Origin: Oligoflexus sp.
Lineage (GTDB): Bacteria; Bdellovibrionota_B; Oligoflexia; Oligoflexales; Oligoflexaceae
DNA length: 15,858 nucleotides
Assembly: GCA_041736305.1 (NCBI GenBank)
Contig: JBGSTX010000209.1
Span: 1-15,858 of the forward strand
Direction of reading: 5' to 3'
Shown here: positions 166 through 15,858 of the stretch, in pieces
Numbering within the stretch: the first letter of the stretch is position 1
Layout: each line of letters starts with the position of its first letter
Translations under genes and position numbers: made by a program
Notes under the pieces: generated by a model
Told to the model about the DNA's origin: nothing
Database searches by the model: none
What the model saw: the letters and a program-made list of their open reading frames with translations, nothing else

Positions 166-567
166 TTATTGGGGACGCCGCTGTTCAGCGGTCTCTACGC
201 ACTTGGCGTAACCGCGTGCCTCATTGATGAAATTCGCTCTCAGAGGCGCAGAATAGGTCTCGTTAAAGAGGTTCATGCTGCGAGGATGTTTGTAGATGAA
301 CTGCATCCAGCGGATATGCGCCTTGGAGCGAACGAAAGCTTTGAGGCTTTCCTCCGAATCCCAATAGCTGATTAGCAAGACCTCGAAGGGGCCAGCGATA
401 CCCGGCAAAGCTTGGCTGCATCCAGGGGCTCGCTTGGTCTTCCAGATAAAAAAGAAAATATGAGTCCAGAGAAAGATGAAACCGAAGAGATTGCGGCTCG
501 AAAGACCTATAATGAGGGTCAAGTCTCGAGCACCTTCTAGCCGGACTTCCGTGTGCAGCTTAGCCAT
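166..567 (-). CDS. DUF4188-like dimeric alpha/beta-barrel (ABM-like) putative monooxygenase
   Basis: Motifs LIIGL near the N-terminus, ISYWDSEESLKAFVRSKAHIRW and FNETY resemble DUF4188/antibiotic-biosynthesis-monooxygenase folds. ATG at 567 is better spaced from AAGGA than the track start at 576. Last gene of the PKS operon. Confidence 0.6.
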   Translation of the reverse strand: MAKLHTEVRLEGARDLTLIIGLSSRNLFGFIFLWTHIFFFIWKTKRAPGCSQALPGIAGPFEVLLISYWDSEESLKAFVRSKAHIRWMQFIYKHPRSMNLFNETYSAPLRANFINEARGYAKCVETAEQRRPQ

Positions 568-588
568 GCTTTGCATCCTTTTTCAGTC

Positions 589-1866
589 TTACCAGGAATA
601 AGTTACGCGGGCCGACAGAATCTCCCGCTCATCGAGCAGTAGCTTTGGGCTACTGGTCTCGGCATAGGTCCTCTGAAATTCGCCCGTTACCGTGATATTC
701 TCTGCAGCGTTCCAGAGCAGGATGGCTCTGATCATCTCATCTTCGCTATTGATACCACGCAGGTAGAATAGCTGCGGTTCGATGAGATAATTGAAGTAGT
801 TGAGATTGGCGGTGGCACCAACCCAGTTGAAGTGCTTCTGATCTTTTGACTCTTTCACGAAGGCGCCATCGGTAAATGCTTCGGGACCTTTCTCCCAAAG
901 ATCGAAATGAAACTCAGCTCCGAAGCTCTGTTGGCCATCTGTCGTCCAGTTTGCTCCGAAGATGCCCTGCGTGAGTCCGCTCCTTTCAACCTTAGCCGAG
1001 ACGCTGGTCGCGGGATAGTTGTTATGATGGACGAGGTCAGCGCGAGCGAGCCAATTAAATCCTGCGTAGGACATAGTCATAGCCGTAGATTCAACCTGAC
1101 GCTCGTCGATAATCACATCCTTGTCATCCGCAAAGGCATTGAAGCGATAGCTTGGAACCCGAGGCCAGTGCTTCCAGTAGTAGAGCTTGGTATCGATACC
1201 GGCTAAAATCAGTCCGACCCGTCCACCCTGCTCTGAATCCTGGCCCATCTTGTAGTCTCGCTTATCGGATATTCCAAAATCTCCGACTTCGTCAGGCTGT
1301 TTGTTGGCCAGCGGTAGGGGAACATAGATGAGCTGATAGTTGAATTCACTACTTTGCCACTCGAGATTGATCATCGGCGAGGGGTTCTTAGCGGCGGGAT
1401 CGTAGTACCCACGAGAATGGGTCAGATCGCGAGGGTTGACCAGATCGAGAATCGGCATTAAGAGATTTTCACCCCAGGTGACTTCCTGCATCCCTAGCCC
1501 GAGTTTATAAGATCCCCATGATTTAGCAGCATAGGCAAGAAGCTTGTCGACGTTATCCGAATCGACATCTTCATAGTTCTTATTATCGACGAAGTCGACA
1601 ATCAGGCGGTATTGTAGGTTGAAGCGCCAAGCTTCTGCTTCGTCCTGAAAGGACCACTGATGCTGCTGACTGAGGAAAAGCACGGCATGACTGGTTTCAC
1701 CGACATCCAAGGCCTGCGTATGTTCATAGCCCGCTTCGCTAGAAAGCCGCCCGAACAGGCCAATGTCTGGCTTTTTTGCCGACACGGAGCCCTCTCCATC
1801 CGCGGCGCAGAGGCTGGAGGGAGTGTTTAAGAAGACTATAATGAGACTGGTGCGGAACTTTTTCAC
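589..1866 (-). CDS. Predicted outer-membrane beta-barrel protein (DUF1302/porin-like)
   Basis: GTG start, signal-peptide-like N-terminus, motif GMQEVTWGE...DLVNPRD typical of barrels found beside lipoprotein-sorting proteins, alternating amphipathic strands, and a C-terminal aromatic residue (ARVTYSW). Lies 20 bp downstream of the preceding gene. Confidence 0.7.
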   Translation of the reverse strand: MKKFRTSLIIVFLNTPSSLCAADGEGSVSAKKPDIGLFGRLSSEAGYEHTQALDVGETSHAVLFLSQQHQWSFQDEAEAWRFNLQYRLIVDFVDNKNYEDVDSDNVDKLLAYAAKSWGSYKLGLGMQEVTWGENLLMPILDLVNPRDLTHSRGYYDPAAKNPSPMINLEWQSSEFNYQLIYVPLPLANKQPDEVGDFGISDKRDYKMGQDSEQGGRVGLILAGIDTKLYYWKHWPRVPSYRFNAFADDKDVIIDERQVESTAMTMSYAGFNWLARADLVHHNNYPATSVSAKVERSGLTQGIFGANWTTDGQQSFGAEFHFDLWEKGPEAFTDGAFVKESKDQKHFNWVGATANLNYFNYLIEPQLFYLRGINSEDEMIRAILLWNAAENITVTGEFQRTYAETSSPKLLLDEREILSARVTYSW

Positions 1867-1886: not shown

Positions 1887-2582
1887 TCAGTTCAGACTAT
1901 TCTGACTGAAAAAGCTTTCAGGAAACTTCTTTTCTTCCATGAGCTGAATCTGCAGGGTGGATTTCTCACCTTTTTTCGCAGCATTTTCGATCACAATCCG
2001 CGTCGGTCGGAGGGCACCTGCCATCGGCTTGTACTCGGTAAAGGTGACAAACTTGAGCACCTTCTCCTGCTGGGTGAGATACTCGCCACGGACCGGCGCA
2101 TAAGTCTTCTTACTGATCCAGACTCGAATTTTGTCGTAAGTCAGGCCCCGACGCTTCGCCGACAAAAACAACACAAATTCCTCGGGTGTTTCACTTTCGA
2201 GCTTCGCATCGTAATCGCCGAACCAGCGCATCCGACTGATATCGCCGTTAGCCGCCTGACCCGTGAGCTTCTGGTTGAGAGTCACGCGAACCGAGCGCTT
2301 GATATTGGGTATGAAAGCCCACATATCTTCATTGAGCATGAGGTAATTCTTGCCATTCTCGCGCTTAGGCTCGAGAGTCCTAATAATAGACGCGTCCTTG
2401 CCGCCGATGGAGATCTCGAAGCGAAAGTGGCTATCGTCGGTCGAGTCTACCGTGACTTCCATGCGATAAGAGTTGGAAGGGCTCCTGATTTCATCAGCCT
2501 TTTTCAAGATTTCGGCGGCATTCTCGGCGGCGACTCCCGTCGTAGATGAGAGAAGACCGATGAACAAAATCCAGGTTTTCAT
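1887..2582 (-). CDS. Outer-membrane lipoprotein-sorting protein (LolA-like periplasmic carrier)
   Basis: Signal peptide MKTWILFIGLLSSTTGVAA. Family motifs ILKKADEIR, EPKRENGKNYLM, MWAFIPNIKRSVRV, QKLTGQAANGDI, TYDKIRVWI and PESFFSQNSL. RBS AAGGGG; 12 bp after the PKS stop. Confidence 0.85.
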   Translation of the reverse strand: MKTWILFIGLLSSTTGVAAENAAEILKKADEIRSPSNSYRMEVTVDSTDDSHFRFEISIGGKDASIIRTLEPKRENGKNYLMLNEDMWAFIPNIKRSVRVTLNQKLTGQAANGDISRMRWFGDYDAKLESETPEEFVLFLSAKRRGLTYDKIRVWISKKTYAPVRGEYLTQQEKVLKFVTFTEYKPMAGALRPTRIVIENAAKKGEKSTLQIQLMEEKKFPESFFSQNSLN

Positions 2583-2594
2583 TTTGTCGTCCCC

Positions 2595-5500
2595 TTATTT
2601 AGCTGCTTTGTCCGGCTTCTGAGCCATCTTTTCCGTCAGGTGAATTTCGACCGTTTTAACTACAACTTCTAGTATTTTGGCTGGAAGATCAGCCGATATC
2701 TTGTTGCCTTCTTCGTTGTTCTTCGCCCAGATTACGCTGTGTTCACCGATCGCAAGTTTTTCTGGTGCGCCGCCATGCTCGCTGTCTTTGAAAAACTCAA
2801 AGTAGAGGTCGAGTCCTTGGCTATGGATGGCCTTGACAGCCATGGAAACTCGGATCTTGTCAAAGGGCATAGCTTCCCTCAGATGCTGTATCCTAGCTTT
2901 CACACAAGTGAGTTCGCCATCTTCTCCGATACCCCGGTATAACTGCGGAACTATGTTCTGAAAGAATTCATCCCTCAGCTTGCCCATCCAAATCGAATAA
3001 TTGCCGAAGTAAAGGTTACCGACCAAATTCGCATCGAAGAGACCCGTCTCATAGACCTTCTCAGCGAGTGGCACCGAGCTGCTCGGTCCTTGCGGAGCTG
3101 TGAATAGAGTCTCGCCCTTCGAGAGCGTACGATAAGGTTCTGGTGCCGGGACGTAGGTGTCCTTATTGTCGTTTTTAGCCACCATACTTGCGATGAAATC
3201 TTTGTAATAGTCGGGGAACTCAGCCGGGCGTACGATCCCATGATCCAGAATCTCGACCCAGGTAAATCCCATCTGACCCGTAGCGATGCGCTCCTCGATC
3301 TGGTCCGGTCCACGGGAGACCCAGTCGAAGTTAAGGGTAGCTGAAGAGTTCTTCGATCCAGTGATCTTACCGCACCACATGCGCGCTTCAACGATACGTT
3401 CACGGTTGCGGCATTCTCCGAGCACTTCTATGCTCGACCAGTTGGTTACTAGACCCCAGCGACCGGTCTCGGTCAGCTCTCTGATTCCGTCTAGCACCGG
3501 AATCGAGGACATTTCGCGTGAAAGTCCCATCCAGTTGAAGAAGTGCGAGAAATAGATCGAACGGTTGAGGTTCGCGAAGGTCTTAAAATCCGGAATGAAG
3601 CGATGGACGAAGACCGACTGCCCTTGTGGTCCATTAGGCTCAGCGTCGATGCGCAGAAGACTGGCTGTTGCCCGGTAGGGATTCAGCAATGGATTGTGGG
3701 CATCTGTCGGAACCACCGCCGCAGCTGGCAGCGCTGCCGATTGGCCGATCTGGATGAGATCCATGGCCTTAGGCAGCTGCAGACGTTTTTCGAGGAACTG
3801 AAGACGATAGTTTTCCATTCGTTCAAGCAGCTGGCCAGACTTATCGAAGACGTCAACCGTCGCGAGATAGGTCTTAGCATCGGCTTTGTGCACGTCGGTG
3901 AAGCTGATGCGATCAAGGACGTCGCGATGCCCACGGAAGAGCGTGATGCGTTCTATCTCGATAGGCAGACACTGATTCTGCGGGATGATGATTTGCGCCG
4001 ATTGGAGCAGAGAATCCCTGAAAAATGGATCACCGAGAAGGTGTCCTTTCAGATGCTGAGGTTCGGCCCGCGAACGGAAAACCGTGCAGCCTTCCGTCTC
4101 ATTATCAGACTCGAGGTGATAGATGTCCTCAATCCTTTGGAACATCGGCCCCTGGAAGAGAATGCTCCCATAGAGCTGCTTCATAGGTTCAATCGCTAGG
4201 CGAGAACTGAAAGTAGGAACTCCTACAACAGCTCTTCTATCGCTAGCCCTCATGATAAAATCAGCTGCGAAGTGATCGTACTTGAATCCTGTCAGAGCCG
4301 TACGGATACCTGTTTTAACGCGGATGCTGCCGTCGCTTTCGGGACGTTCACAGGCTTCAGCATAGATCTCAATGTCGACCCCTTGTGCACCGACCGTAAT
4401 CGGACGGGAGAGCTGAATATTCTCGAGGATACAGCTATCTTGGCCGCTGAGATCGAAGAGGGTATTCACCACTTGCGCCATGGCCTCAAGACCATAGACG
4501 GTCGGCATGAGGAAAGCGCCTTTGTAGTTGTGGTCTTTGAGGTAACTATGACTATCCAAGGTCAGCTTTGTTCTCGCGATCGCTTCGACGTCGCGCTGGT
4601 AGTGCAAGAGCTGCTCAATGAAGGACACGGTAAAATTCTGCGGTGGCAGGATAGCGACTTTGTCGCCGATATCGCCAAGCCTTGAGCTGATAACCGACTG
4701 CTGATCCGGAGCCTTGGCATCGGCTAAGTCCATAAACCTTTGCACGCCTTGCTCAGGAGCGATCGAACCGATACCCTTGCTCTCGAGATTTTTGTCGCTT
4801 CCCATGCGAGCGCCCATGCCGACCTCTGCCCATACACTATAGGCCAGAGTCTGGGTCTGAGCCTTTGGATGGGCTTTGCCGTAGCGACGAATCATGAGGT
4901 CGAGGGTCTCATTGGCGAAACCGTACCAAGCATTGCCCGGCATACCGGTCACACCGATGACGGACGTAAGGCCGATGACGAGTTTAATGGAGTCCTTGGT
5001 CGTCGCCTGAAAGAGGTTCCACATCCCCTTTACTTTAGGGGTCATTTCACTGAGCGCACTCGCGGCGTCGACAGTCGAAGCCGGACGCGGCTTATTTATG
5101 CCTGCCCCATGTACGATCCCGCTGATCGGACCTAGCTCGGCACGAATGCGGTCCACCATCTGCCCGACATCATGGGCATTGCCGATATCGCAGCTATAAT
5201 AGCGGGCTTCGAGTTTGAGCGCGCGGTATTGTTCGAGAGTTGCGGTGATCGGATGCTCTTTGTTGCTTTCGTCTTCCTTCGAAAGCGGTGACGAACCTAT
5301 CAAGGCCATCTTCACCTTGTGCTTTTGCGCGAAGGCCAGAGCGCAGGCGGCTGTAATTCCTTTTGCACCCCCAGTAACAAGTATCACATCCTTTTTGTTC
5401 CAGGAGATATTGCGAGCTTCATAGCTCTGCGGCTGTTCAGCCAGCAGCTCAGGTACATATCGAACCCCCTTCTTATCGAAGCCACTGACCCGGATGGTGG

Positions 5501-8500
5501 CTGGCTCTTTCCAGCTATCAAGGAGCTGACTGAGGCAGAGGGAGAGATCGCTCACTTGGCTGAAAGACAGCGCTCTGATCTTGAGATCGCTGCGTTCATG
5601 AGCGAGGCTTTGAGCAAAAGCTTTGGCGCTGCTAATCGGTGCGGCTTCCGAACTATGGCCGAAGCGGCCGTCATCGATCTGGACAAAACTAATCGTTTGA
5701 CCCTTCTTCCAGCGTCCTTGGGCGATGGCGCTCAAGATTCTGACCCGCTCGTTGAGAGCGTCGTTGAAGTCTTCAGCTTTCGGGATAGGTAGAAGGACGA
5801 TGACTAGATCGGCGTCCAGAGCCTGCACCTGAAAGCTGCTCTCCGGCGCTGAACAGAAAGAGCTGCGGGCCACTGCGCCCTGAGATTCGAGAGAACTTTG
5901 GACCTGCTCGACCCAAGCTTGGTCGCGACTAGAGGCCACAATTTGTACGACAGCCTGATTCCAGGACTCAGAGGTCTTGGGCAGCTTTGTCTCGGTAAAT
6001 ACTTCTGTGAAGTTTCTGACCCATGGGGCCCTATTTTTACTCTTCGAAACTTCGGCTACCATAGGTGCGGCGGGCGCCACCGCTTTGGCTTTAGGAGCTG
6101 CCTCGGGAAGGACCTGCAAACTAGCTGAAGAGCTCACAAGTGGCTCTTTTTGTACCGACGAAGCTGGTGCCTGAGGACTATCCGCAGACAGGCCTTTCTC
6201 AGCTAGCTTGTCGCGAATCGCTTGGGCGATTTCTCCGATCGAAGCGTTGGCGAAAGCAGCGAGCTCGAGCTCCCCAGCGATTCCATAGTGCATGCTAGCG
6301 TTGGCGACCAGTTCACTGGCTTTAATTGAATCGAGGTTCAGGTCATCGAGAACGCGCATCTCGGGTTTGAGGGTCGCGGCTTCGAAGCCGGTGAGACTTT
6401 CTATCACACCGAAAAGGACTTGCTCTACCGAACTAGCCGGCGCCACAGCTGCTGGTGCTGGTGACGTCGAAGTCACTTCAGCGGCACGTTCAGCTACAAT
6501 CGGAAGCGAAGCAGCAATGGGTAAAGTCTGAACTACTGGAGCGGTGAATCCTAGGGAAGCTCCCGGAACCTGCGCTACTGTAAGAGGTCGTTCCGTAGGG
6601 CTCTCGATAAATTTTTTCTCATCAGGCCGCACGAAGGGACGCACGAAGCGGTGGCGATAGAGCTCTTCCCAACGTACCTGTGAGCCTTTAGTATAGCTGA
6701 TGGCGAGAATAGCTTTGTACTCAGCATCATAGCCGGGCCTACTTTCGCTCGGCCAGCACAGGGTCTGCGTGCTGCTGCTGTTGATGCGTTTGAATAAGCC
6801 GCTTAAGATTGCCGACGGACCGATCTCAAAGACCAGATCCGCTTCTTGCTGTACTGTCTTCGCCAGAGCCACAAAATCTACCGGCTCGATGATCTGCTGG
6901 GCCAGATAAGCGTTGAGATCCGAAGCAGCATCGAAGAGCTTACCGTCGGTTCCCCGGACAAATTTTAGTTCAGGACGAGCGAACTTAATGTCCTTCATAA
7001 ACGCAGCGAAAGCTGTCGCCGCTTCGTCCATGTAGGAGGAATGAAAAGCGTTGGACACCGGCAGAGGGCCGGCGCGTAGATTTTTAAGTTTAGCCAGTTC
7101 GAGAATCTTATCCAAAGCCTTCACGTCGCCCGAGAGGATAGTCTGATCCGGGGCGTTGATATTGGCAACGGTCACATAGCCGTCCACTTCTTTGATAAGG
7201 CTTTCGGCTGTCGCTTGATCGCAGGCAAGGTGAATCATACCGCCCGGACGATCGGCGCGGTTGGCCATCAGGGCTCCGCGTTTGCTGGCAAGTTTGATCA
7301 GAGTCGGAAAATCGATAGCTTTGGCGGCGAACAATGCGCTGAGTTCACCTAGACTATGCCCAGCGACGACGCTGGGATTGATGCCGAAGCGCTGCATGGC
7401 TTCTAGCCAGAGGACGTTGCTCAAAGTAATCGCGGGTTGTGCCATTTCAGTGAGCGATAGCTTTTTCAGCTGCTCTTCATCGTGCCGGTAGCTTTCCGTG
7501 AACAGACAATCGCTGAGAGGGGTCGCATTATACTCCCGCACGATGCTCTCTGCCCGCTCGAGCCTGTCTTTCGCCCAATCGAAGCGGCGAATAAGCTTTT
7601 TGCCCATATTCAGCTTTTGCGCACCCTGACCGGGGAACACAAAGGCTATACGGGGTGGCTTGTTGCTAAAGCCGAGACTGATAAGAGTGGATCCCTCGAG
7701 GCTTTCTCGGGTCTCATTGGCTTTTAAAGGTGTTTCGAGCCACTTAGCTAGCTTGCTGAGAGCCTGGAAGGCGTCTTCTGGCTTTTGAACAACCACAGCG
7801 GCGCGATAGTTCTCGTGCCCTTTCGCAAATCGCGAAAGATCGGCGGCAAGGTCGAGCAGCTCGGCCCGACTGATGCGGCGAACATAGGCAAGCGTTTGCT
7901 GAATCTTACGCTCAAGCGCCGTCTGTGATGGCGCCGAGAAAACCAGAACCTCACCACGATCGTGGGAGCTGAGTAGGACTTTCTCGTCTGCCGAAGGACG
8001 CAGGTTCTCTTGCACCTGACCATAGCTCTCCATGGTCACGTGGGAGTTGATACCGCCAAAGCCCATTGCGGAAAGACCGGCTCGCATAACTGCGTTTTCA
8101 GGGCGTTTGTACCCCTCGATCAGCGGCGTGAAGAAGCGGGCTTTCCCACTGAAGAGATCACTGAATTCTTCAACCCCAGCCATCGGCGGAGCGACCCGCT
8201 GATTGACGCCTATGACGGTTTTGATAAAAGCACCGATTCCGGCAGCAGCTTTGGTGTGCCCAACGATAGACTTGAGCGAGGTGATACCGATGTTTTGCGC
8301 CGGCACCCCATCTCCTAACGCTTCGACCATGGCCGAGACTTCGATCTTGTCCCCGACTGTCGTTCCCGTTCCATGACCTTCAATAAAATCGCAATCTTTG
8401 AGCTGATAGCCCGACATACTATAGGCTTTAGAAATGGCGCTCGCCTGACCAGCGACTGAAGGGGCCGTGAGTCCGCCTTTGCCGTCTGAAGATATGCCCC

Positions 8501-9422
8501 AGCCTTTGACGACGGCATAGATCTTGTCGTTGTCCCGGATCGCGTCTTCGAGTCGCTTCATGATAACGAATCCGCAGCCTTCGCCCGGAATAAATCCATT
8601 GGCGCGCTTGTCGTAGACCCGCATTTCATCGGGGGTGAGAGCCCCCGTCTTTGCGAAACCGATAAGCTCAAAGGTATCAAGACTGATGTCGATCCCGCCA
8701 GCGAAAGCGACATCGAGTTCGCCTTCGGCGAGATTGCGTGCCGCTGTAATAACAGCGATGAGCGACGATGCACAAGCTCCGTCGACCGTATACCCTCCGC
8801 CGTGGAGATCAAGAAAATTACAAACGCGGCCGGCGATAGTGTTCGATAGTGCGCCGGCGAGGGTATCTTCGGTCACGGGAGGAAAAACGGATTTAAAGGT
8901 TGGTTCGACAGCCTGTATGTAGGCTTCAAGGGCCGGTCCACTCATGCCCTGAGCTTTGCCGGTCTCGCGCAGGACTTTAGCGAAATAAGGCCAGCGCATG
9001 CGCATGGCGTTGGTACGGGTCCATTCACCAGTCAGAGTATTGCCAAGTATAACGCCGGTATTGATTTTTTGTAGTTTTTCAAGGGAAAGTCCTGAATCTT
9101 CGAGGGCTTTCAACGCTACGTCGAGAGCCATCCACTGCACGATATCGGTACCGTCGACAGTCTTCTTGGGTATGCGCTTCTCTTTCCAATCGAAGTCGTA
9201 ACCGTCGATAACACCAGCTTCAGTTCCGTAAGTCTTATCGGGAACTGACTTATCAGGTGAATAGTATTCCGCGTGAGGTAGGCGCTCGTCGGGCATCCTG
9301 CGGAACTGCTGGCGCTTAGCTAGGATATTCTCCCAAAACTCAATCAATGATTGCGCCCCGGGGTACCAGCAAGACATTCCAACTACAGCAATTCCAAGAT
9401 TTTCGCGCTTCTTACCCGTCAT
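2595..9422 (-). CDS. pksE: Iterative type I polyketide synthase, enediyne PksE-like: KS-AT-ACP-KR-DH plus two fused hot-dog thioesterases; no PPTase domain
   Basis: KS: DGACASS (Cys217), EGHGTGT, KSIVGHTK, plus the PksE-typical GNTLTGEWTRTNAMRMRWP. AT: FPGQG, GHSLG (Ser690), NAFHS (malonyl type). Single ACP: DDLNLDSIK (Ser1032). KR: TGGAKGITA, HGAGINKP, YGFAN. DH: LKDHNYKGAFLMP (His1631), DSLLQ. TE1: IYFSHFFNWMGLSRE. TE2: NLVGNLYFGNYSIWMGKLRD. RBS AAGGAG. The symbol refers to the enediyne-type pksE, not Bacillus pksE. Confidence 0.92.
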   Translation of the reverse strand: MTGKKRENLGIAVVGMSCWYPGAQSLIEFWENILAKRQQFRRMPDERLPHAEYYSPDKSVPDKTYGTEAGVIDGYDFDWKEKRIPKKTVDGTDIVQWMALDVALKALEDSGLSLEKLQKINTGVILGNTLTGEWTRTNAMRMRWPYFAKVLRETGKAQGMSGPALEAYIQAVEPTFKSVFPPVTEDTLAGALSNTIAGRVCNFLDLHGGGYTVDGACASSLIAVITAARNLAEGELDVAFAGGIDISLDTFELIGFAKTGALTPDEMRVYDKRANGFIPGEGCGFVIMKRLEDAIRDNDKIYAVVKGWGISSDGKGGLTAPSVAGQASAISKAYSMSGYQLKDCDFIEGHGTGTTVGDKIEVSAMVEALGDGVPAQNIGITSLKSIVGHTKAAAGIGAFIKTVIGVNQRVAPPMAGVEEFSDLFSGKARFFTPLIEGYKRPENAVMRAGLSAMGFGGINSHVTMESYGQVQENLRPSADEKVLLSSHDRGEVLVFSAPSQTALERKIQQTLAYVRRISRAELLDLAADLSRFAKGHENYRAAVVVQKPEDAFQALSKLAKWLETPLKANETRESLEGSTLISLGFSNKPPRIAFVFPGQGAQKLNMGKKLIRRFDWAKDRLERAESIVREYNATPLSDCLFTESYRHDEEQLKKLSLTEMAQPAITLSNVLWLEAMQRFGINPSVVAGHSLGELSALFAAKAIDFPTLIKLASKRGALMANRADRPGGMIHLACDQATAESLIKEVDGYVTVANINAPDQTILSGDVKALDKILELAKLKNLRAGPLPVSNAFHSSYMDEAATAFAAFMKDIKFARPELKFVRGTDGKLFDAASDLNAYLAQQIIEPVDFVALAKTVQQEADLVFEIGPSAILSGLFKRINSSSTQTLCWPSESRPGYDAEYKAILAISYTKGSQVRWEELYRHRFVRPFVRPDEKKFIESPTERPLTVAQVPGASLGFTAPVVQTLPIAASLPIVAERAAEVTSTSPAPAAVAPASSVEQVLFGVIESLTGFEAATLKPEMRVLDDLNLDSIKASELVANASMHYGIAGELELAAFANASIGEIAQAIRDKLAEKGLSADSPQAPASSVQKEPLVSSSASLQVLPEAAPKAKAVAPAAPMVAEVSKSKNRAPWVRNFTEVFTETKLPKTSESWNQAVVQIVASSRDQAWVEQVQSSLESQGAVARSSFCSAPESSFQVQALDADLVIVLLPIPKAEDFNDALNERVRILSAIAQGRWKKGQTISFVQIDDGRFGHSSEAAPISSAKAFAQSLAHERSDLKIRALSFSQVSDLSLCLSQLLDSWKEPATIRVSGFDKKGVRYVPELLAEQPQSYEARNISWNKKDVILVTGGAKGITAACALAFAQKHKVKMALIGSSPLSKEDESNKEHPITATLEQYRALKLEARYYSCDIGNAHDVGQMVDRIRAELGPISGIVHGAGINKPRPASTVDAASALSEMTPKVKGMWNLFQATTKDSIKLVIGLTSVIGVTGMPGNAWYGFANETLDLMIRRYGKAHPKAQTQTLAYSVWAEVGMGARMGSDKNLESKGIGSIAPEQGVQRFMDLADAKAPDQQSVISSRLGDIGDKVAILPPQNFTVSFIEQLLHYQRDVEAIARTKLTLDSHSYLKDHNYKGAFLMPTVYGLEAMAQVVNTLFDLSGQDSCILENIQLSRPITVGAQGVDIEIYAEACERPESDGSIRVKTGIRTALTGFKYDHFAADFIMRASDRRAVVGVPTFSSRLAIEPMKQLYGSILFQGPMFQRIEDIYHLESDNETEGCTVFRSRAEPQHLKGHLLGDPFFRDSLLQSAQIIIPQNQCLPIEIERITLFRGHRDVLDRISFTDVHKADAKTYLATVDVFDKSGQLLERMENYRLQFLEKRLQLPKAMDLIQIGQSAALPAAAVVPTDAHNPLLNPYRATASLLRIDAEPNGPQGQSVFVHRFIPDFKTFANLNRSIYFSHFFNWMGLSREMSSIPVLDGIRELTETGRWGLVTNWSSIEVLGECRNRERIVEARMWCGKITGSKNSSATLNFDWVSRGPDQIEERIATGQMGFTWVEILDHGIVRPAEFPDYYKDFIASMVAKNDNKDTYVPAPEPYRTLSKGETLFTAPQGPSSSVPLAEKVYETGLFDANLVGNLYFGNYSIWMGKLRDEFFQNIVPQLYRGIGEDGELTCVKARIQHLREAMPFDKIRVSMAVKAIHSQGLDLYFEFFKDSEHGGAPEKLAIGEHSVIWAKNNEEGNKISADLPAKILEVVVKTVEIHLTEKMAQKPDKAAK

Positions 9423-9460
9423 CTCTCTTGCTCCTTAACCTTCGTATGAGGCAGGTCTAT

Positions 9461-9494
9461 CCCTCAGCTGATCTGCAAGCAGCTCAGCTAAGAG
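9461..9494 (-). promoter_or_regulatory. Stem-loop in the putative 5' leader of the PKS operon
   Basis: AGCTGA(9466-71)/TCAGCT(9484-89) with inner CTG/CAG. Flanking C/A mismatches on + become G-U pairs on the minus-strand RNA. Confidence 0.45.
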
Positions 9495-9531
9495 GAACGA
9501 GGCCTTATTCGGATCGATTCAGTGGTCGACT

Positions 9532-9548
9532 ATGCAAACGCCAAGCCA
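9532..9548 (-). promoter_or_regulatory. Putative sigma54 (-24/-12) promoter for the PKS operon
   Basis: Minus strand reads TGGCTTGGCGTTTGCAT, i.e. GG-N10-GC with a TTGCA -12 box, about 110 bp upstream of the PKS ATG. Confidence 0.55.
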
Positions 9549-9906
9549 TATGTTTAAGCCCTTTCCAGGCACAGACTGCGCTCGAGCCGAAAAAAAATTC
9601 GAAAAGTATCAATGCCCTACTGGTGCCACAAATTTTTTACTTTTCTAGGCTCAGAAGTGCCCCCCCAGCTAAAACCCTGGAGGATCGCGGCACTAATTCA
9701 TTTTGTCCGATCGGCACTACTGAAATTTTTATGAGTAAAATGGGTGTCAGAGTTCTAGACCGTCAAAATTATTGCCGAATAAGTCGAAAGCTAGTTTATG
9801 CTGTCCAAGAATTGCTGAGTCTGGATTTGGGCAATTCGATGTTTTGAGGCCTGGGGCTTAGAAGGAGCTTAGGCGGCTAAAGCGGACGAGGTCACCTCTG
9901 TTAGTA

Positions 9907-9949: not shown

Positions 9950-10666
9950 ATGGGTGAGAGTCCAGGGACGGCAGTATTCCAGTGTTCTAAACTGATCTTT
10001 TCCTACAAAAGTCCGCAAGGTCCAACTCGAGTACTCGATGGGATAGACCTTACCGTTGAGAGCGGTGATTTTATATGCCTGACCGGTCCCTCGGGTTCTG
10101 GAAAATCGACCTTACTCAATCTCCTGGGCCTCATAGAAGCACCGCAGGAAGGCCAGTTTATGTTTCAGTCGAAAGCCGTAAACGGCCTAGCTGAAAAAGA
10201 TCTCAATTGGATTCGACGCTATAAAATAGGCTTCATTTTCCAAGATTTTCAACTGATAGAAGTCCTCACCGTAGAGGAAAATGTCGAGTACTTTCTCACG
10301 CGGCAAAAGGTTCCCCCCGTCGAACGCCAGCAGCTAGTTGAATTGGCCCTTCATGAAGTTGGACTGTGGACCCATCGAGAAAAACGCCCTTCTCAGCTCA
10401 GCGGCGGCCAAAAGCAGCGCGTGGCTATCGCGCGGGCCCTTGCCAAACGCCCCGCCGTGATTATAGCGGATGAACCCACGGCAAGTCTCGACCTCACGAC
10501 AGGCAGAACTGTTATGGACGTCCTGAAGAAGCTGAATGAGAAGTTAGGAGTAACCATCGTCCTAGCCTCTCACGACCCCATGGTGTTGGAATATGGGAAG
10601 ACCGAAATTAAATTAAGAGAAGGTCGGATATTGAGCCAGCAAGGAGCTAGACGCGATGTTAGCTAA
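9950..10666 (+). CDS. ABC transporter ATP-binding protein, LolD/MacB family
   Basis: Walker [16 protein letters not shown]-loop, signature LSGGQKQR, Walker B IIADEPT, H-loop ASHD. Strong RBS. Confidence 0.95.
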
Positions 10667-11861
10667 GTTCGCTGTTCGTAATGTAAAGAGAAACCGCCGT
10701 CGCTCGATAGTAGCTGTCGGTACCATCGCGGTCGGCGTATTCGGGCTGCTATTCCTCCAAGGCTTCTTCTCCGGCCTCATCTCGCTGCACACTGAAAACT
10801 CTATCCACTCGCGTTTCGGCCACGGTCAGGTCATGACGAAGAACTACTGGGGCCAGGCCTTTGAGAAGCCCTATGAGCACTGGATAGCCAACCCAGCTGA
10901 AGTGATGGCCGACCTGGAGAAAGACCCCGGCGTGTATGCTGTCTTTCCCAGAGTGCAATTCTTCTCCCTCCTGAGCAACGGCAGTATCAATGTCGCAGGC
11001 CGTGGTCAAGGGGTCGTCGGCGAGAAGGAAAAAGACTTTTTTGATAAAATGAACTTCGTCCAAGGCGAAGCGATCGGCTCCAAAAAAGACGGCATAGTCC
11101 TCGGAATAGGAGTTGCAAGGGCACTTGGAGTAAAACTAGGTGATTCGGTCACAGTCCTAGGGCAAACTGTCCACGGATCGATTAATGCTATCGATACAGT
11201 AGTAAGCGGAATCTTTCATGTCGGCATGAAAGAGGCCGATGACTCGCTTTTTCAGGTTCAGCTGAGCCAGGCCCATGTTCTTCTCGATACCAGCGCGGTC
11301 GAATCGATAACGATCGGCCTTTCGGACCCTAGCAGCTGGAGCCGCGTAGCCAGGAACATTGAAAAGGCCCACCAGGAACTCGAAGCTATACCCCTGCACA
11401 TACTGGATCAGGTCTGGGCTGAGAACGGCGAAAAGTTTCTTAAGGCCCTGCTCAATATATTTCGTCTGACCTTTTTAGGCATGATCATGCTCGCCATCTA
11501 TAACAGCGCTTCCAATACTGTCCTCGAGCGGAAGCGCGAACTAGGCATGCTTCGCGCCAACGGCGAGTCGGCTGGCGATCTCGTGCGACTGCTGCTTATC
11601 GAGGGGCTGGTCCTGGCCAGCTTAGGCGCTCTGATCGGAGCAGGACTGACTCTCTTAGCGGATCAGCTCGCAGGATCTGGACTGCCTATGCCTCCCACTC
11701 CAGGGACTAATCGTGAGCTTCCTGTAAAACTGGACCTGCGCTTATCCTATTTCGCTGTTGCCATCGCATTAGGCGTTGCCACCTCTCTGATTGCAACTCT
11801 GCTTTCGACTTTACAAGTACTTAAGCTCTCGATAGTGCAAGCTATCCGAGCCCCTCAATAA
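10656..11861 (+). CDS. ABC transporter permease, FtsX/MacB/LolCE family
   Basis: AVRNVKRNRRRS N-terminus, one TM helix, large periplasmic domain, ERKRELGMLRANG motif and three C-terminal TM helices. Overlaps the ATPase gene by 11 nt (translational coupling). Confidence 0.93.
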   Translation: MLAKFAVRNVKRNRRRSIVAVGTIAVGVFGLLFLQGFFSGLISLHTENSIHSRFGHGQVMTKNYWGQAFEKPYEHWIANPAEVMADLEKDPGVYAVFPRVQFFSLLSNGSINVAGRGQGVVGEKEKDFFDKMNFVQGEAIGSKKDGIVLGIGVARALGVKLGDSVTVLGQTVHGSINAIDTVVSGIFHVGMKEADDSLFQVQLSQAHVLLDTSAVESITIGLSDPSSWSRVARNIEKAHQELEAIPLHILDQVWAENGEKFLKALLNIFRLTFLGMIMLAIYNSASNTVLERKRELGMLRANGESAGDLVRLLLIEGLVLASLGALIGAGLTLLADQLAGSGLPMPPTPGTNRELPVKLDLRLSYFAVAIALGVATSLIATLLSTLQVLKLSIVQAIRAPQ

Positions 11862-12334: not shown

Positions 12335-13237
12335 ATGAGAAGTAAAATTTTAGTGGCTACTGCTGTGCTTTCCGCACAGTTTGCATGCAAAAAGAACAAT
12401 GATCTCCCTTACAGCACGTCCCAAGTCTCGGCTATGTCGATGGAAGCTAAAGGCTTCTCTTCTCATGAAAGTAGCCAAGTAAATGAAGTCGCCGCACCGA
12501 GCGTAGGTGCGAATCTCGCTTTACCAGCGCGCAATACTTTGCCTATTTCGCCCGCTACTTGGTGTGAAGGCAGTCTAAATGCACTTAAAATCAGCAAACA
12601 GGCGATTACCGCAGAGCTGGCAGCGCTCTGTACCGGAGCCACTCCAACAGCGCGCTTTGCGACTCTCATTAACTCAGCCTATACCGGGACCGGTGAAGCG
12701 GTTATTACTCCTATCAGCGTCGGTATGGTAGGAAGCGATGTTCAACTCTTCGTTGCCTATGCGATGAAGCTGAATAAGCCAGCGGTTCAGACTCTCTTGG
12801 GTGAAGAAAAACACGTTCCATCAGGCTACGACGTTGGTGACCTGAAGATCGTTCCAAAATTCGTTAACCCGCCCCCTCTTAATACAGGTGACTGCGATAC
12901 GGCCTTCTACGTCGACCAGTACACTGAAGTAAACGATGTCATCGACTTTAAAGAGACTTCCAAGAATGAACTGAAGATGTATCGCCTTCACCCGAACAAC
13001 TTCGATTTCTTCATGGCCGCTCGTACCCTGGTTGCACCGACTGAACAATTCCGTAAGGCAGTGGTTATGCGGGCGATCATGGCTGATCCGGCAGACCCTA
13101 AGAAATCGATAGCTATCTCCGTACTCAACTTTGTTATGAACGATAGAAACGGCAACGGCGACAATGTTCGAGCGACTTTCGAAAGATTTATCGAGGCAGA
13201 TTTCCTGGCTCTTTACAAAAGTCAAACCACTAACTAA
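12335..13237 (+). CDS. Putative lipoprotein of unknown function (paralog 1)
   Basis: Signal MRSKILVATAVLSAQFA-C, low-complexity tether, Cys pair WCE...ALC, and SAYTGTGE motif shared with the next gene. Confidence 0.8.
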   Translation: MRSKILVATAVLSAQFACKKNNDLPYSTSQVSAMSMEAKGFSSHESSQVNEVAAPSVGANLALPARNTLPISPATWCEGSLNALKISKQAITAELAALCTGATPTARFATLINSAYTGTGEAVITPISVGMVGSDVQLFVAYAMKLNKPAVQTLLGEEKHVPSGYDVGDLKIVPKFVNPPPLNTGDCDTAFYVDQYTEVNDVIDFKETSKNELKMYRLHPNNFDFFMAARTLVAPTEQFRKAVVMRAIMADPADPKKSIAISVLNFVMNDRNGNGDNVRATFERFIEADFLALYKSQTTN

Positions 13238-13274
13238 GTAATCCGGCGTGAGTTCGCCGCTTTGGAGAATTACA

Positions 13275-14195
13275 ATGTTGAAATCTAATAGTACTAAGTT
13301 TATTTGCACTTTTCTTGGCAGCCTGTGCTTAGTGATCATCGCAGCTTGTGGTGAAGGTTCTAAAAAGAGTTTCGACGCTAACTCAGGTACATCAACTCTT
13401 AGCGGCGATAGCACAAAGGGTCAGGCCGCCACGCCCGACACGTCTGGTACAGAGGGTATCCTAGGTGACACGCTCATCGACAATCGCACCATCACGCAAG
13501 TCCTTTGCGAAGAAGGCCCAAAAGTGGTTGGCAAGAACAGCAAAGGTAACTTCGATAAGGAATTTGCACTGGTCTGTGCCAATGGCACTACCAACGAAAC
13601 CTTTAAGAAATTGCTGCTGAGTGCCTTCAGTGGTACAGGCGAACCGGCTATCACGACGGTAGCGAATACCAGCGATGACAATTACGTGACCAATTTGGTC
13701 CTCGCCTATTCAGTGAAGATGCCCATAGCAGACCCCTCACTCTTCGCTGACTACAAGGCTCACGACATCTTCGCCCCAGGTGTCAAAGCTGGTAACTCGG
13801 AGCTTAAAATCGCTGTAGAATCTCGTCAGTCTTTCCCAGGCAAAGCCAGCGTAGAACAGGTAATCCTGAACTACAACCTACTCAACGCAGAAGGCGCAGG
13901 CATCTTGGATAAACGTCGGACCGAATTCAATACCTATCTCCTGTTAGAGAATACCCGCGATGTAGTTGTATCAACCGAAGTACTTTTGGATGAAGCTACG
14001 AACGAGCAGTATCATCAAGCTAACGGTATGAACATCGGCATCAAAGACAACTCAGGCCAGACCTATATGATCTTTATCATCAACCTTGTCATCAAGAACC
14101 GCATCGATCCAGCACGCATGCAGAAGACGATGCTGACTCTCAATGGTCAGGTAGCAAAAATGATCCAAGCTCACGTCGTAGCTGGCAATAAGTAA
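13275..14195 (+). CDS. Putative lipoprotein of unknown function (paralog 2)
   Basis: ATG 13275 preceded by GGAGA is preferred to the track GTG at 13248. Lipobox IIAA-C, Ser/Thr/Gly tether, LCE...NFDKEFALVC, SAFSGTGE, RRTEFNTY. Confidence 0.8.
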   Translation: MLKSNSTKFICTFLGSLCLVIIAACGEGSKKSFDANSGTSTLSGDSTKGQAATPDTSGTEGILGDTLIDNRTITQVLCEEGPKVVGKNSKGNFDKEFALVCANGTTNETFKKLLLSAFSGTGEPAITTVANTSDDNYVTNLVLAYSVKMPIADPSLFADYKAHDIFAPGVKAGNSELKIAVESRQSFPGKASVEQVILNYNLLNAEGAGILDKRRTEFNTYLLLENTRDVVVSTEVLLDEATNEQYHQANGMNIGIKDNSGQTYMIFIINLVIKNRIDPARMQKTMLTLNGQVAKMIQAHVVAGNK

Positions 14196-14236
14196 TCAAC
14201 TAGAAAATTTTAAATAGTTCAAAGGGGTACGCCATC

Positions 14237-15133
14237 ATGAAAAATATTAAGATTATAGTTCACGCATTCGCCGTTCCTATACTGCTCTTGTCTATGACCC
14301 AGTGCAACAAGACAGTTCCTCAGGACGATGAAGAAAGCCCGAAGCCGGCTAAAGCCGACAACCTTGCCTCTGAAGCGACTCCTAAGCCTGATGAAACCAG
14401 TCTTAAACTGGACTATCCGAAGCAGTACTGCGAAAACGTGCGTAGGATTTCGATTCGGACCAATATCGACTCCATGATCGAATACATCTGCGCTGGCAAG
14501 TCGCCGTCGAAAGAATTTCTGGAACTCCGGACTAAGGCTATGAATGCAAAGCCGGGCGATATCCAGCTGTCGACTATAAAAATCAATCACAACGAAGAGA
14601 CTCAGAAGTCGGAATTCGTTATCGTCTGGGCATTCCACGTCCCTCTCCGCCCGTTCGAAGTCAAAGGCCGTCCTATTTATCAGTATGTAGCCCAGGGCTA
14701 TACCTCAGAGACGATAACTCTCGCGAGTAAGTTCGAACTTCAGCCGGATACCACCCTTGATCCAGGCGGTCTTCACCTCTGGAGCGTGAAGCTCAATCAT
14801 GATCTCGTTATCAAGGGTAGTTCCAACCTAAACCTCGCGAGCGCTCGTAATACCGAGTACAACCTTTATCAGGTTCTCTCCGGTAACGAAGAGATGGGAC
14901 TCGGCATCGAGCACATGACCGATACCGGCAATCCAAGCTACGATGCCTCGACGATGGCGAACTTCTCCTTCAACGACGGCGGCGGCTTCAACGATGGCAA
15001 AGGTGGAACGGTAGTTGTGACCATGCTACACTTTATTATCGGTAATTCGGGCTTTCCAAAGACCGCGACCGACTCGATTGCAGAAATTGCAAAGAACATT
15101 GCCGATGGCATGTACAACGGTCTGAAACAATAA
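14237..15133 (+). CDS. Putative lipoprotein of unknown function (paralog 3)
   Basis: Signal ending LLLSMTQ-C (atypical lipobox), Pro/Glu/Lys tether, YCE...YIC, RNTEYNLYQVLSGNEEMGLGIEH. RBS AAGGGG. Confidence 0.8.
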   Translation: MKNIKIIVHAFAVPILLLSMTQCNKTVPQDDEESPKPAKADNLASEATPKPDETSLKLDYPKQYCENVRRISIRTNIDSMIEYICAGKSPSKEFLELRTKAMNAKPGDIQLSTIKINHNEETQKSEFVIVWAFHVPLRPFEVKGRPIYQYVAQGYTSETITLASKFELQPDTTLDPGGLHLWSVKLNHDLVIKGSSNLNLASARNTEYNLYQVLSGNEEMGLGIEHMTDTGNPSYDASTMANFSFNDGGGFNDGKGGTVVVTMLHFIIGNSGFPKTATDSIAEIAKNIADGMYNGLKQ

Positions 15134-15160
15134 GCTTTAACGGCGCGAGAGGCTTGTACA

Positions 15161-15858
15161 ATGTTTGAGAACTTCGGAAAAAAAGGTTCTATAGTAGCAG
15201 GGGCCATGGCTTTAGGTCTCATCAGCTGCAAAAGCAAGAATGAAGATGGTTCGGAAAAGACCGGTACGAAGCAATTTGCCACACAGGATGTCCTGAAATT
15301 CAGTGATATGCCTGAGCTGAGCGCCCAGACTTCGACGATCAAAAAGGACCTTCAGGACCTCTTCTGCATCCACGTTTATAAATTGCCTTTGAAGGCTAAT
15401 TTTGACAACGAGTTCGGCTACCTCTGCCAGAACAATAAGCCGACTGCTCTTTTCGATACGATCGGCCAGCACGCCCAGATAGTGGGCGCGCAGCCCCGTT
15501 CCGTCGAACTGAACCTTCAGCATCGCGCAGACGGTGTCACCGAAGGGACTTATGTGACAGTCTATCGCCTGCCCAACGAACCTAAGTGGGTGAAGACTTC
15601 GCAGATCCAGAACTACATGACCCAAGACAGCGCTTACAGCTATGTGAAGATGGATGCCGATGTGTCGGCTGACCTCAACGAACAGGTAGGCGGTGACTTG
15701 CAGTTCAGCAAGTACAATCTACACTACGTGACGGAAGTTACGACTCCTGACAACACCACCTTCTCTAACGAGCGCACTACCGAACTCAACAGCTACCAGG
15801 TTTTCGGTGGTAACTCGGACATGGGCCTCGGCGCTGAGCACCTCGTGAGTAGCCCTGA
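15161..15858 (+). CDS. Putative lipoprotein of unknown function (paralog 4), truncated by the window end
   Basis: Hand translation: MFENFGKKGSIVAGAMALGLIS-CKSKNEDG...LFC...NFDNEFGYLCQNNKPT...RTTELNSYQVFGGNSDMGLGAEHLVSSP, open to the end. RBS GAGAGG. Absent from the ORF track because no stop lies in the window. Confidence 0.85.
   Translation, partial: MFENFGKKGSIVAGAMALGLISCKSKNEDGSEKTGTKQFATQDVLKFSDMPELSAQTSTIKKDLQDLFCIHVYKLPLKANFDNEFGYLCQNNKPTALFDTIGQHAQIVGAQPRSVELNLQHRADGVTEGTYVTVYRLPNEPKWVKTSQIQNYMTQDSAYSYVKMDADVSADLNEQVGGDLQFSKYNLHYVTEVTTPDNTTFSNERTTELNSYQVFGGNSDMGLGAEHLVSSP

Follow-up and report, generated by a model that had tools for sequence, protein, structure and literature searches.

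How might an iterative type I polyketide synthase (PKS) from a non-actinomycete bacterium release its own product? This question is raised by a gene of Oligoflexus sp. in the window analyzed here, which is the whole of a 15,858-base contig (JBGSTX010000209.1) from a 5.0-Mb, 392-contig genome with an estimated completeness of 92.7%. The C terminus of the 2275-aa PKS had been read in the initial annotation as two SgcE10/CalE7-like hot-dog thioesterases, here TE1 and TE2, fused in tandem and forming a covalent pseudo-heterodimer with possibly two non-equivalent sites. With a probability of about 0.72, we favor the reading that this region is a double hot-dog thioesterase that arose by an old tandem duplication, has one composite active site, and releases the chain in cis.

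The C-terminal half, TE2, is recognizable from a single sequence. A phmmer search of the last 375 residues of the PKS against all PDB chains matched TE2 to SgcE10 (4i4j; E = 4.4e-11), CalE7 (2w3x; 1.7e-10), 5vpj (8.1e-9), DynE7 (2xfl; 1.7e-8), and 9ccr (7.7e-8), with all other chains at E > 0.4, and the same search of the whole C terminus returned no PDB match for TE1. A comparison of TE1 alone with Pfam gave only a chance-level DUF2854 match (E = 0.092), and the Pfam scan of the full PKS gave a single thioesterase-like match, 4HBT_2 at aa 2131 to 2237. A TE1-only profile (alignment A2) built from 25 sequences of genomic loci matched DynE7 across the whole domain (1.6e-12), followed by 5vpj (2e-8), SgcE10 (2.4e-8), 9ccr (9.6e-7), and CalE7 (1.8e-5), and the next match after these enediyne-type thioesterases stood at E = 0.97. 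The two halves also match each other, both by BLASTP (1e-5 across 64 residues) and by hhalign, in which a TE1 profile of 80 sequences was aligned with that of TE2 (probability 99.3%, E = 8e-21, 148 columns, 20% identity). Both halves are contained in all 80 long homologues, many of which cross-match between the TE1 query and TE2 or the reverse. The TE1 profile and the TE2 matches therefore place both halves in the sequence family of the enediyne-type thioesterases, and sequence comparison identifies TE1 and TE2 as homologous to each other and to these enzymes.

The tandem pair of hot-dog domains proposed in the initial annotation is borne out by the PDB matches, the hhalign comparison, and the TE1 profile. 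Its motifs lie where it had placed them, NLNRSIYFSHFFNWMGLSRE in TE1 (aa 1951 to 1970; window 3513 to 3572) and NLVGNLYFGNYSIWMGKLRD in TE2 (aa 2132 to 2151; window 2970 to 3029), with the two arginines at Arg1969 and Arg2150, and the SgcE10 motif that it quoted appears in the alignment to PDB 4i4j. Its domain limits were correct in location and slightly narrow, as TE1 extends from about 3183 to 3656 and TE2 from about 2619 to 3113. The phmmer alignment maps Asn19, Tyr29, and Arg37 of CalE7 to Asn2132, Tyr2142, and Arg2150 of TE2, and Arg1969 of TE1 aligns with the CalE7 Arg that is placed eight residues past the conserved Tyr, so that Asn2132/Tyr2142/Arg2150 of TE2 and Asn1951/Phe1961/Arg1969 of TE1 all occupy CalE7-type positions in the Oligoflexus protein. 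A further segment of TE2, HLREAMPFD (aa 2180 to 2188; window 2859 to 2885), on the strand after the TE2 helix, is nearly invariant in a 14-sequence alignment (A1); E and FD alone align with the solved enediyne thioesterases, and HLREAMPF served as a search pattern for related loci.

The predicted fold agrees with these assignments. An AlphaFold2 model of aa 1919 to 2275, based on alignment A1, reached a mean predicted local distance difference test score (pLDDT) of 87.2 and a predicted template modeling score (pTM) of 0.87, and shows two helix-in-sheet units linked by coil, in each of which a long helix is wrapped by a sheet of 5 to 6 strands (the TE1 helix spans model residues 40 to 54). The central helix of TE1 carries Arg1969 (model residue 51) and that of TE2 carries Arg2150 (model residue 232), and Phe1961 and Tyr2142 lie close to where these helices begin. 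The top whole-model Foldseek matches are double hot-dog thioesterases, led by a Chlamydomonas acyl-acyl carrier protein (ACP) thioesterase (9mqf; 5.5e-14) and followed by ACOT7, FatA/FatB, and ACOT12 (E from 5.5e-14 to 1e-12). VIA-align superposed model residues 7 to 315 on Arabidopsis FatA (9grr) with a Z score of 22.6 and a root mean square deviation of 3.2 Å over 249 of 258 residues. The C-terminal ∼350 residues are confidently modeled as a double hot dog, which would be the covalent pseudo-heterodimer foreseen in the initial annotation, and the diverged TE1 half is itself modeled as a hot dog, so that a check named in the initial annotation as able to refute its reading did not do so.

Conservation, as read from the alignments, is strongly asymmetric between the halves. 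Residues were counted in the 240 of 257 proteins in which all eight positions could be aligned, the other 17 being left out because of gaps. Within TE1, Arg1969 is present in 240 of the 240 relatives and Glu1970 in 235, Asn1951 is present in 113 and absent in 127, and position 1961 is Tyr in 148, Phe in 70, and another residue in 22. Within TE2, Asn2132 is present in 236 and Tyr2142 in 235, and Arg2150 is found in 174, with L, I, F, V, or K instead in the remaining 66. The cross-half set of Arg1969, Asn2132, and Tyr2142 is complete in 231 of the 240, and the same-half triads are complete in 166 (TE2) and 61 (TE1), neither being complete in 65. Arg2150 and Asn1951 tend to be kept or lost together (cells 106/68/7/59; odds ratio, 13; Fisher p = 5e-13, which overstates the independence of events because the sequences are related). 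Among 80 homologues, Gly1966 and Arg1969 of TE1 are present in all 80, Glu1970 in 79, and Asn1951 in 38, and for TE2 the corresponding counts are 80 each for Asn2132, Gly2135, Asn2136, Tyr2138, and Tyr2142 and 61 for Arg2150; 18 of the 19 homologues without Arg2150 also lack Asn1951. The initial annotation had suggested that the two sites may be non-equivalent, and the asymmetric conservation in both the 80 and the 240 relatives supports non-equivalence of the halves.

Passages of PMC2698920 describe hot-dog dimers as having antiparallel central helices and active sites that draw residues from both subunits, and state that double hot dogs generally retain one active site. Applied here, such antiparallel packing would set the beginning of the TE2 helix (Tyr2142, with Asn2132 before it) opposite the later TE1 helix turns, which carry Arg1969-Glu1970. 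Since the conservation data fit this picture, we infer a single composite active site, with the second site in decay, in preference to two functional sites. An ancestral enediyne-type (SgcE10/CalE7/DynE7) hot-dog thioesterase would have been duplicated in tandem long ago, and its two halves would pack as a covalent pseudo-heterodimer that replaces the homodimer of the stand-alone enzymes. In this arrangement, Arg1969/Glu1970 on the TE1 helix would come together with Asn2132/Tyr2142 where the antiparallel TE2 helix begins. The mirror site, formed by Asn1951/Phe1961 of TE1 with Arg2150/Asp2151 of TE2, appears to decay across the family and to have been lost as a unit in many lineages; the putative mirror site of the Oligoflexus protein has kept Asn and Arg, with Phe instead of Tyr. 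By analogy with the enediyne systems, the di-domain would act in cis to free a chain, probably a polyene, from the ACP by hydrolyzing its thioester, and it may also decarboxylate the chain in the manner of CalE7. In CalE7, Arg is reportedly required for thioester hydrolysis and Tyr reportedly aids the decarboxylation of the beta-keto acid; if these roles hold, both functions belong to the composite site, and the mirror site of this protein, with Phe for Tyr, has at most one. In enediyne polyene formation, a thioesterase is required for product, as given in part of PMC9992847, and a section of PMC3107222 reports that CalE7 binds its ACP weakly and seems to recognize the polyene. In view of such weak binding, tethering the thioesterase to the synthase would be an understandable solution.

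Several points weigh against the composite-site reading. The cross-half geometry is drawn from general hot-dog architecture and conservation patterns, and the conservation counts come from related sequences and not from independent events. The second site of the Oligoflexus protein retains Asn1951, Arg2150, and Asp2151, and a second, weaker site may be active in this protein. The PKS is also not established as a true enediyne synthase, given its sub-threshold NCBIfam matches and the non-diagnostic matches of its acyltransferase (AT) and ACP.

The retained residues bear on the idea of two working, non-equivalent interface sites that both hydrolyze or process the chain; for example, the Tyr site could support decarboxylation and the Phe site hydrolyze only, controlling the type of product. 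We consider this unlikely. The Oligoflexus protein does carry both arginines and both asparagines, its pattern, NFRE/NYRD, is the commonest in the 80 close homologues (20/80), and Phe1961 in place of Tyr would fit a site without a decarboxylation helper; however, Arg2150 is lost in 66 and Asn1951 in 127 of the 240 relatives, so the second site cannot be essential to the family, and the general retention of one site by double hot dogs, noted in PMC2698920, argues in the same direction. Two sites with separate roles, as the initial annotation had envisaged, are not favored when the one residue set found intact in almost every relative (231/240) combines residues of both halves. Of the two arginines that it matched to the catalytic one of CalE7-type enzymes, Arg1969 is present in 240/240, and Arg2150 is lost from 66/240, a loss that tends to accompany that of Asn1951. 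It is rather improbable that TE2 acts alone through Asn2132, Tyr2142, and Arg2150, with TE1 as a structural half that shapes the acyl pocket in the manner of the N-terminal half of FatA/FatB. Every CalE7-type residue is kept in TE2 here, and the nearest structural matches are FatA/FatB-type enzymes, whose catalytic residues sit in one half. Yet the replacement of Arg2150 by a hydrophobic residue or Lys in 66/240, next to an invariant Arg1969 and a Glu1970 kept in 235/240, is hard to explain with a purely structural TE1, and neither same-half triad is complete in 65/240.

The hot-dog fold supports many chemistries, and VIA-align also related the model to the double hot-dog acyltransferase/decarboxylase LnmK (Z = 18.7) and to MaoC-type dehydratases (Z of ∼17). 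The di-domain could accordingly be something other than a hydrolase, for example, an LnmK-like decarboxylase/acyltransferase, a dehydratase, or a cyclase that works on the chain while it is bound to the ACP, with release carried out by another protein. We regard this as very improbable, because only enediyne-type thioesterases match either half significantly by sequence in the PDB, the residues aligned with CalE7 Asn19/Tyr29/Arg37, which are reportedly catalytic there, are kept, and no other chain-releasing enzyme was seen on the 15.9-kb contig with Pfam.

The di-domain is kept as a unit in hundreds of genomes, usually fused to a synthase and in some cases encoded by its own gene immediately downstream. 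When 1.84 billion representatives were searched exhaustively, 545 proteins matched at E ≤ 1e-3, of which 259 reached E ≤ 1e-30; of the 150 top-ranked proteins, 50 have a length of at least 2000 aa and 28 one of 325 to 429 aa, and many of those of intermediate length may be fragments. The C-terminal search among proteins of 1251 to 3982 aa gave 80 clusters, with named sources that include Oligoflexus tunisiensis, Pseudobacteriovorax, Derxia lacustris, a Xenococcaceae cyanobacterium, and Margulisiibacteriota, and several homologues carry the JGI label “enediyne polyketide synthase.” The homologue of the cultured O. tunisiensis Shr3 (P0008) has a C terminus with 71% identity to that of the Oligoflexus protein analyzed here. 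A pattern search of one genome per species found 288 matching stretches, 250 of which encode a relative. Locus counts refer to the best 80 of these 250 related loci, which include many from Desulfosarcina and other Desulfobacterales, Competibacteraceae, Omnitrophota, and Planctomycetota. The ketosynthase (KS) and the di-domain share one uninterrupted frame in 50 of the 80 loci. Another 15 have the KS upstream and the di-domain in another frame or open reading frame (ORF), and in five of these (L011 to L014 and L023) the stop-to-stop di-domain frames of 345 to 397 aa look like separate genes. The remaining 15 have no KS, and the di-domain frame runs off the contig end in 10 of them. Fusion is thus the norm among non-actinobacterial homologues, which makes the Oligoflexus PKS one ordinary member of a large family; the caution in the initial annotation that fused forms might already exist there proved well placed, with 250 relatives and 50 of 80 loci in the same frame as the KS.

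The architecture varies around this core. Relatives of about 2600 aa carry a phosphopantetheinyl transferase (PPTase) domain between the dehydratase (DH) domain and TE1 (P0029, with ACPS at aa 2139 to 2199), some of ∼2800 to 3000 aa have an extra C-terminal flavin amine-oxidase domain after TE2 (P0046, aa 2503 to 2978), and split relatives of ∼1650 to 1750 aa are without KS-AT (P0027, P0031, and P0035). The Oligoflexus PKS has neither the PPTase insertion nor the C-terminal amine oxidase. Free-standing di-domain proteins of ∼350 aa exist, as do forms of ∼500 to 590 aa, one of which is labeled thioesterase/PPTase. A single-domain search with TE2, restricted to candidates of 94 to 300 aa, returned nine proteins and no actinomycete E10-type protein; seven of the nine come from contigs shorter than 4 kb and are for that reason probably gene fragments.

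Compared with SgcE10 (4i4j), CalE7 (2w3x), and DynE7 (2xfl/2xem), both halves share the sequence family and the hot-dog fold, an Asn instead of an acidic catalytic residue at the position of CalE7 Asn19, the Tyr and the helix Arg-Glu/Asp pair (here kept between the two halves), and a KS-AT-ACP-ketoreductase (KR)-DH iterative synthase as partner. PMC8341276 describes a C15 polyene as the product of SgcE together with SgcE10, and a carbonyl-conjugated polyene as that of CalE8 together with CalE7. Whereas those enzymes are separate single-domain proteins of ∼140 to 160 aa, with several chains per crystal entry, the Oligoflexus protein has two copies in one synthase-fused chain, and its catalytic residues are split unevenly between copies that have diverged to 20% identity in the profile alignment. 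Its host is not an actinomycete, and no other enediyne cassette gene was recognized on the 15.9-kb contig, which was annotated without profiles for E3-E5. The resemblance to FatA/FatB and ACOT7/ACOT12 lies in the two-domain pseudo-dimer from duplication with asymmetric halves; in contrast, identity to these is 9 to 13% with no significant sequence match, and they are free-standing, whereas the Oligoflexus di-domain is part of a synthase. The catalytic residues of FatA/FatB and ACOT7/ACOT12 differ from the CalE7-type ones. Enediyne PKSs (SgcE, CalE8, and DynE8) have the same KS-AT-ACP-KR-DH order and carry a PPTase domain after the DH, which relatives of the P0029 type retain. The Oligoflexus PKS, unlike them, is without a PPTase and has the thioesterase di-domain at its end. 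In the PDB, the DynE8 and CalE8 pieces are not the top matches of its AT and ACP, and its neighbors are export genes, not an enediyne cassette.

The coordinates of the PKS, its domains and key residues, and the neighboring genes are collected in Table 1. The di-domain is single copy in its own genome, where the search found the open frame as 2279 aa. For the synthase part, the PDB ranking is led by modular PKSs for the KS, by FabD-type malonyl transacylases for the AT (4e-36; DynE8 AT, 5.7e-25), and by AcpM for the ACP (2.6e-5; CalE8 ACP, 4e-4). Enediyne synthases are represented in the PDB by the AT of DynE8 and the ACP of CalE8 alone, and the AT and ACP comparisons are not diagnostic. NCBIfam gave partial sub-threshold matches to the PKS, such as PKS_plus_SDR with 582.9 bits against a cut-off of 1740. 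The polyunsaturated fatty acid synthase PfaA (TIGR02813) was rejected as an assignment, with 509.8 bits against a cut-off of 1010.1 and the KS-AT part alone matching. Pfam found no ACPS (PPTase) domain in the PKS protein, in which the DH extends to about aa 1880 and TE1 begins near aa 1923. At other sites, the genome contains two free-standing PPTase genes of the ACPS family (C116:5041-5259 and C108:10239-10469), and the ACP of the PKS is presumably activated by one of them.

Table 1. Features of the analyzed window, with positions in nucleotides of the window
Feature	Position	Strand	Basis or remark
Iterative type I PKS gene, 2275 aa, intact frame	2595..9422	-	Longest ORF on the contig; stop codon included
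KS domain, aa 11-417	8172..9392	-	Pfam ketoacyl-synt 2.1e-54, Ketoacyl-synt_C 5.7e-29
AT domain, aa 594-873	6804..7643	-	Pfam Acyl_transf_1 7.4e-33
ACP domain, aa ∼1003-1069	6216..6416	-	Pfam PP-binding 0.0021, weak, below cut-off
KR domain, aa 1347-1516	4875..5384	-	Pfam KR 5.4e-28
DH domain, aa 1611-1880	3783..4592	-	Pfam PKS_DH_N 3e-7, PS-DH 1.8e-16
TE1, N-terminal hot-dog half, aa 1923-2080, diverged enediyne-type thioesterase copy	3183..3656	-	TE1 profile, hhalign, model
Asn1951 (3570-3572) and Phe1961 (3540-3542) of TE1, Asn/Tyr positions of the putative degenerate second site	3540..3572	-	Alignment
Arg1969-Glu1970 of the TE1 central helix, proposed catalytic pair of the composite site	3513..3518	-	Conservation, alignment to CalE7
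Inter-domain linker, aa 2081-2103	3114..3182	-	Mostly coil in the model (residues 161-186); variable and gapped in alignment A1
TE2, C-terminal hot-dog half, aa 2104-2268, SgcE10/CalE7/DynE7-like	2619..3113	-	Pfam 4HBT_2 1.7e-7, PDB matches, model
Asn2132 (3027-3029) to Tyr2142 (2997-2999) of TE2, counterparts of CalE7 Asn19/Tyr29	2997..3029	-	phmmer alignment
Arg2150 of TE2, counterpart of CalE7 Arg37	2973..2975	-	Present here, not conserved in the family
Gene for a LolA-like periplasmic carrier, immediately downstream of the PKS	1887..2582	-	Pfam LolA_like 8.3e-38
425-aa protein, probably a DUF1302-type outer-membrane protein	589..1866	-	ESM Atlas DUF1302 clusters 0.98, a lead only
136-aa protein, could be a tailoring enzyme	166..576	-	Pfam, weak ABM/af470-like monooxygenase matches (4.9e-7)
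ABC ATPase, divergent from the PKS	9950..10666	+	Pfam ABC_tran 3.6e-33
MacB/FtsX-type permease, divergent from the PKS	10656..11861	+	Pfam FtsX 3.4e-12, MacB_PCD 1.1e-10

Among the neighbors, the 425-aa protein has no Pfam or NCBIfam match, and NCBIfam gave nothing on the neighboring genes beyond a sub-threshold LolA3 match. Recurrence was assessed by tblastn (E ≤ 1e-5) across the 80 kept loci, in which the LolA-like gene was found 8 times, FtsX 7, the 425-aa gene 6, and the ABM-like gene 4, almost all in Oligoflexales or near relatives; for the LolA-like gene, the only locus outside this group is a metagenome-assembled genome of Methylococcales. The ABC/FtsX pair is conserved upstream of the PKS in Oligoflexales loci, and Desulfobacterales and other loci have different neighbors. 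As a lead only, this gene context suggests envelope export of a hydrophobic PKS product in the Oligoflexales lineage.

Four consecutive ORFs of 300, 315, 298, and at least 232 aa lie farther along the window (12335 to 15856, plus strand) and have no Pfam or NCBIfam match. Each has an N-terminal signal-like segment ending in Cys, as in lipoproteins, and the four are weakly similar in BLASTP comparisons (5e-16 to 4e-6), which gives them the appearance of putative lipoproteins from one tandem family; two or three such ORFs recur near the PKS in the Oligoflexus loci L003, L004, and L007. A 166-aa ORF (9347 to 9847, plus strand) overlaps the beginning of the PKS gene on the other strand; with neither a family match nor a tblastn match among the 80 loci, it is unlikely to be a gene.

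The double hot-dog principle and the domain family are known, and a synthase-fused, duplicated enediyne-type thioesterase with its residues divided between the halves seems undescribed; no description of the fused di-domain was found in the full text of open-access papers and preprints. The division of residues amounts to a natural experiment on which subunit supplies which residues of a CalE7-type site. The present results also give reason to read anew the “enediyne-like” ketosynthases that an mSystems study of 2023 (PMC10308959) reports from many phyla without known enediynes and takes as possible new sources; the word “thioesterase” is absent from that paper. The synthases concerned have their own double hot-dog release module, and in the Oligoflexus lineage the PPTase domain has been lost and the neighbors point to envelope export with no enediyne cassette, a combination that suggests a self-contained polyene or lipid pathway.

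More speculatively, and at odds that we would place well below even, these proteins may represent a widespread, uncharacterized class of self-releasing enediyne-type polyene synthases of Gram-negative and other non-actinomycete bacteria. Their thioesterase would be an asymmetric covalent pair with a single composite site, to which TE1 supplies Arg and TE2 supplies Asn/Tyr, the decaying mirror site may be reused as a pocket that binds the polyene or gauges chain length, and in Oligoflexales the product would pass to the LolA-like carrier, the DUF1302-type protein, and the MacB-type exporter. If true, this system would correspond, with a type I PKS, to the aryl-polyene pigments of the outer membrane and would not be a cytotoxic enediyne pathway.

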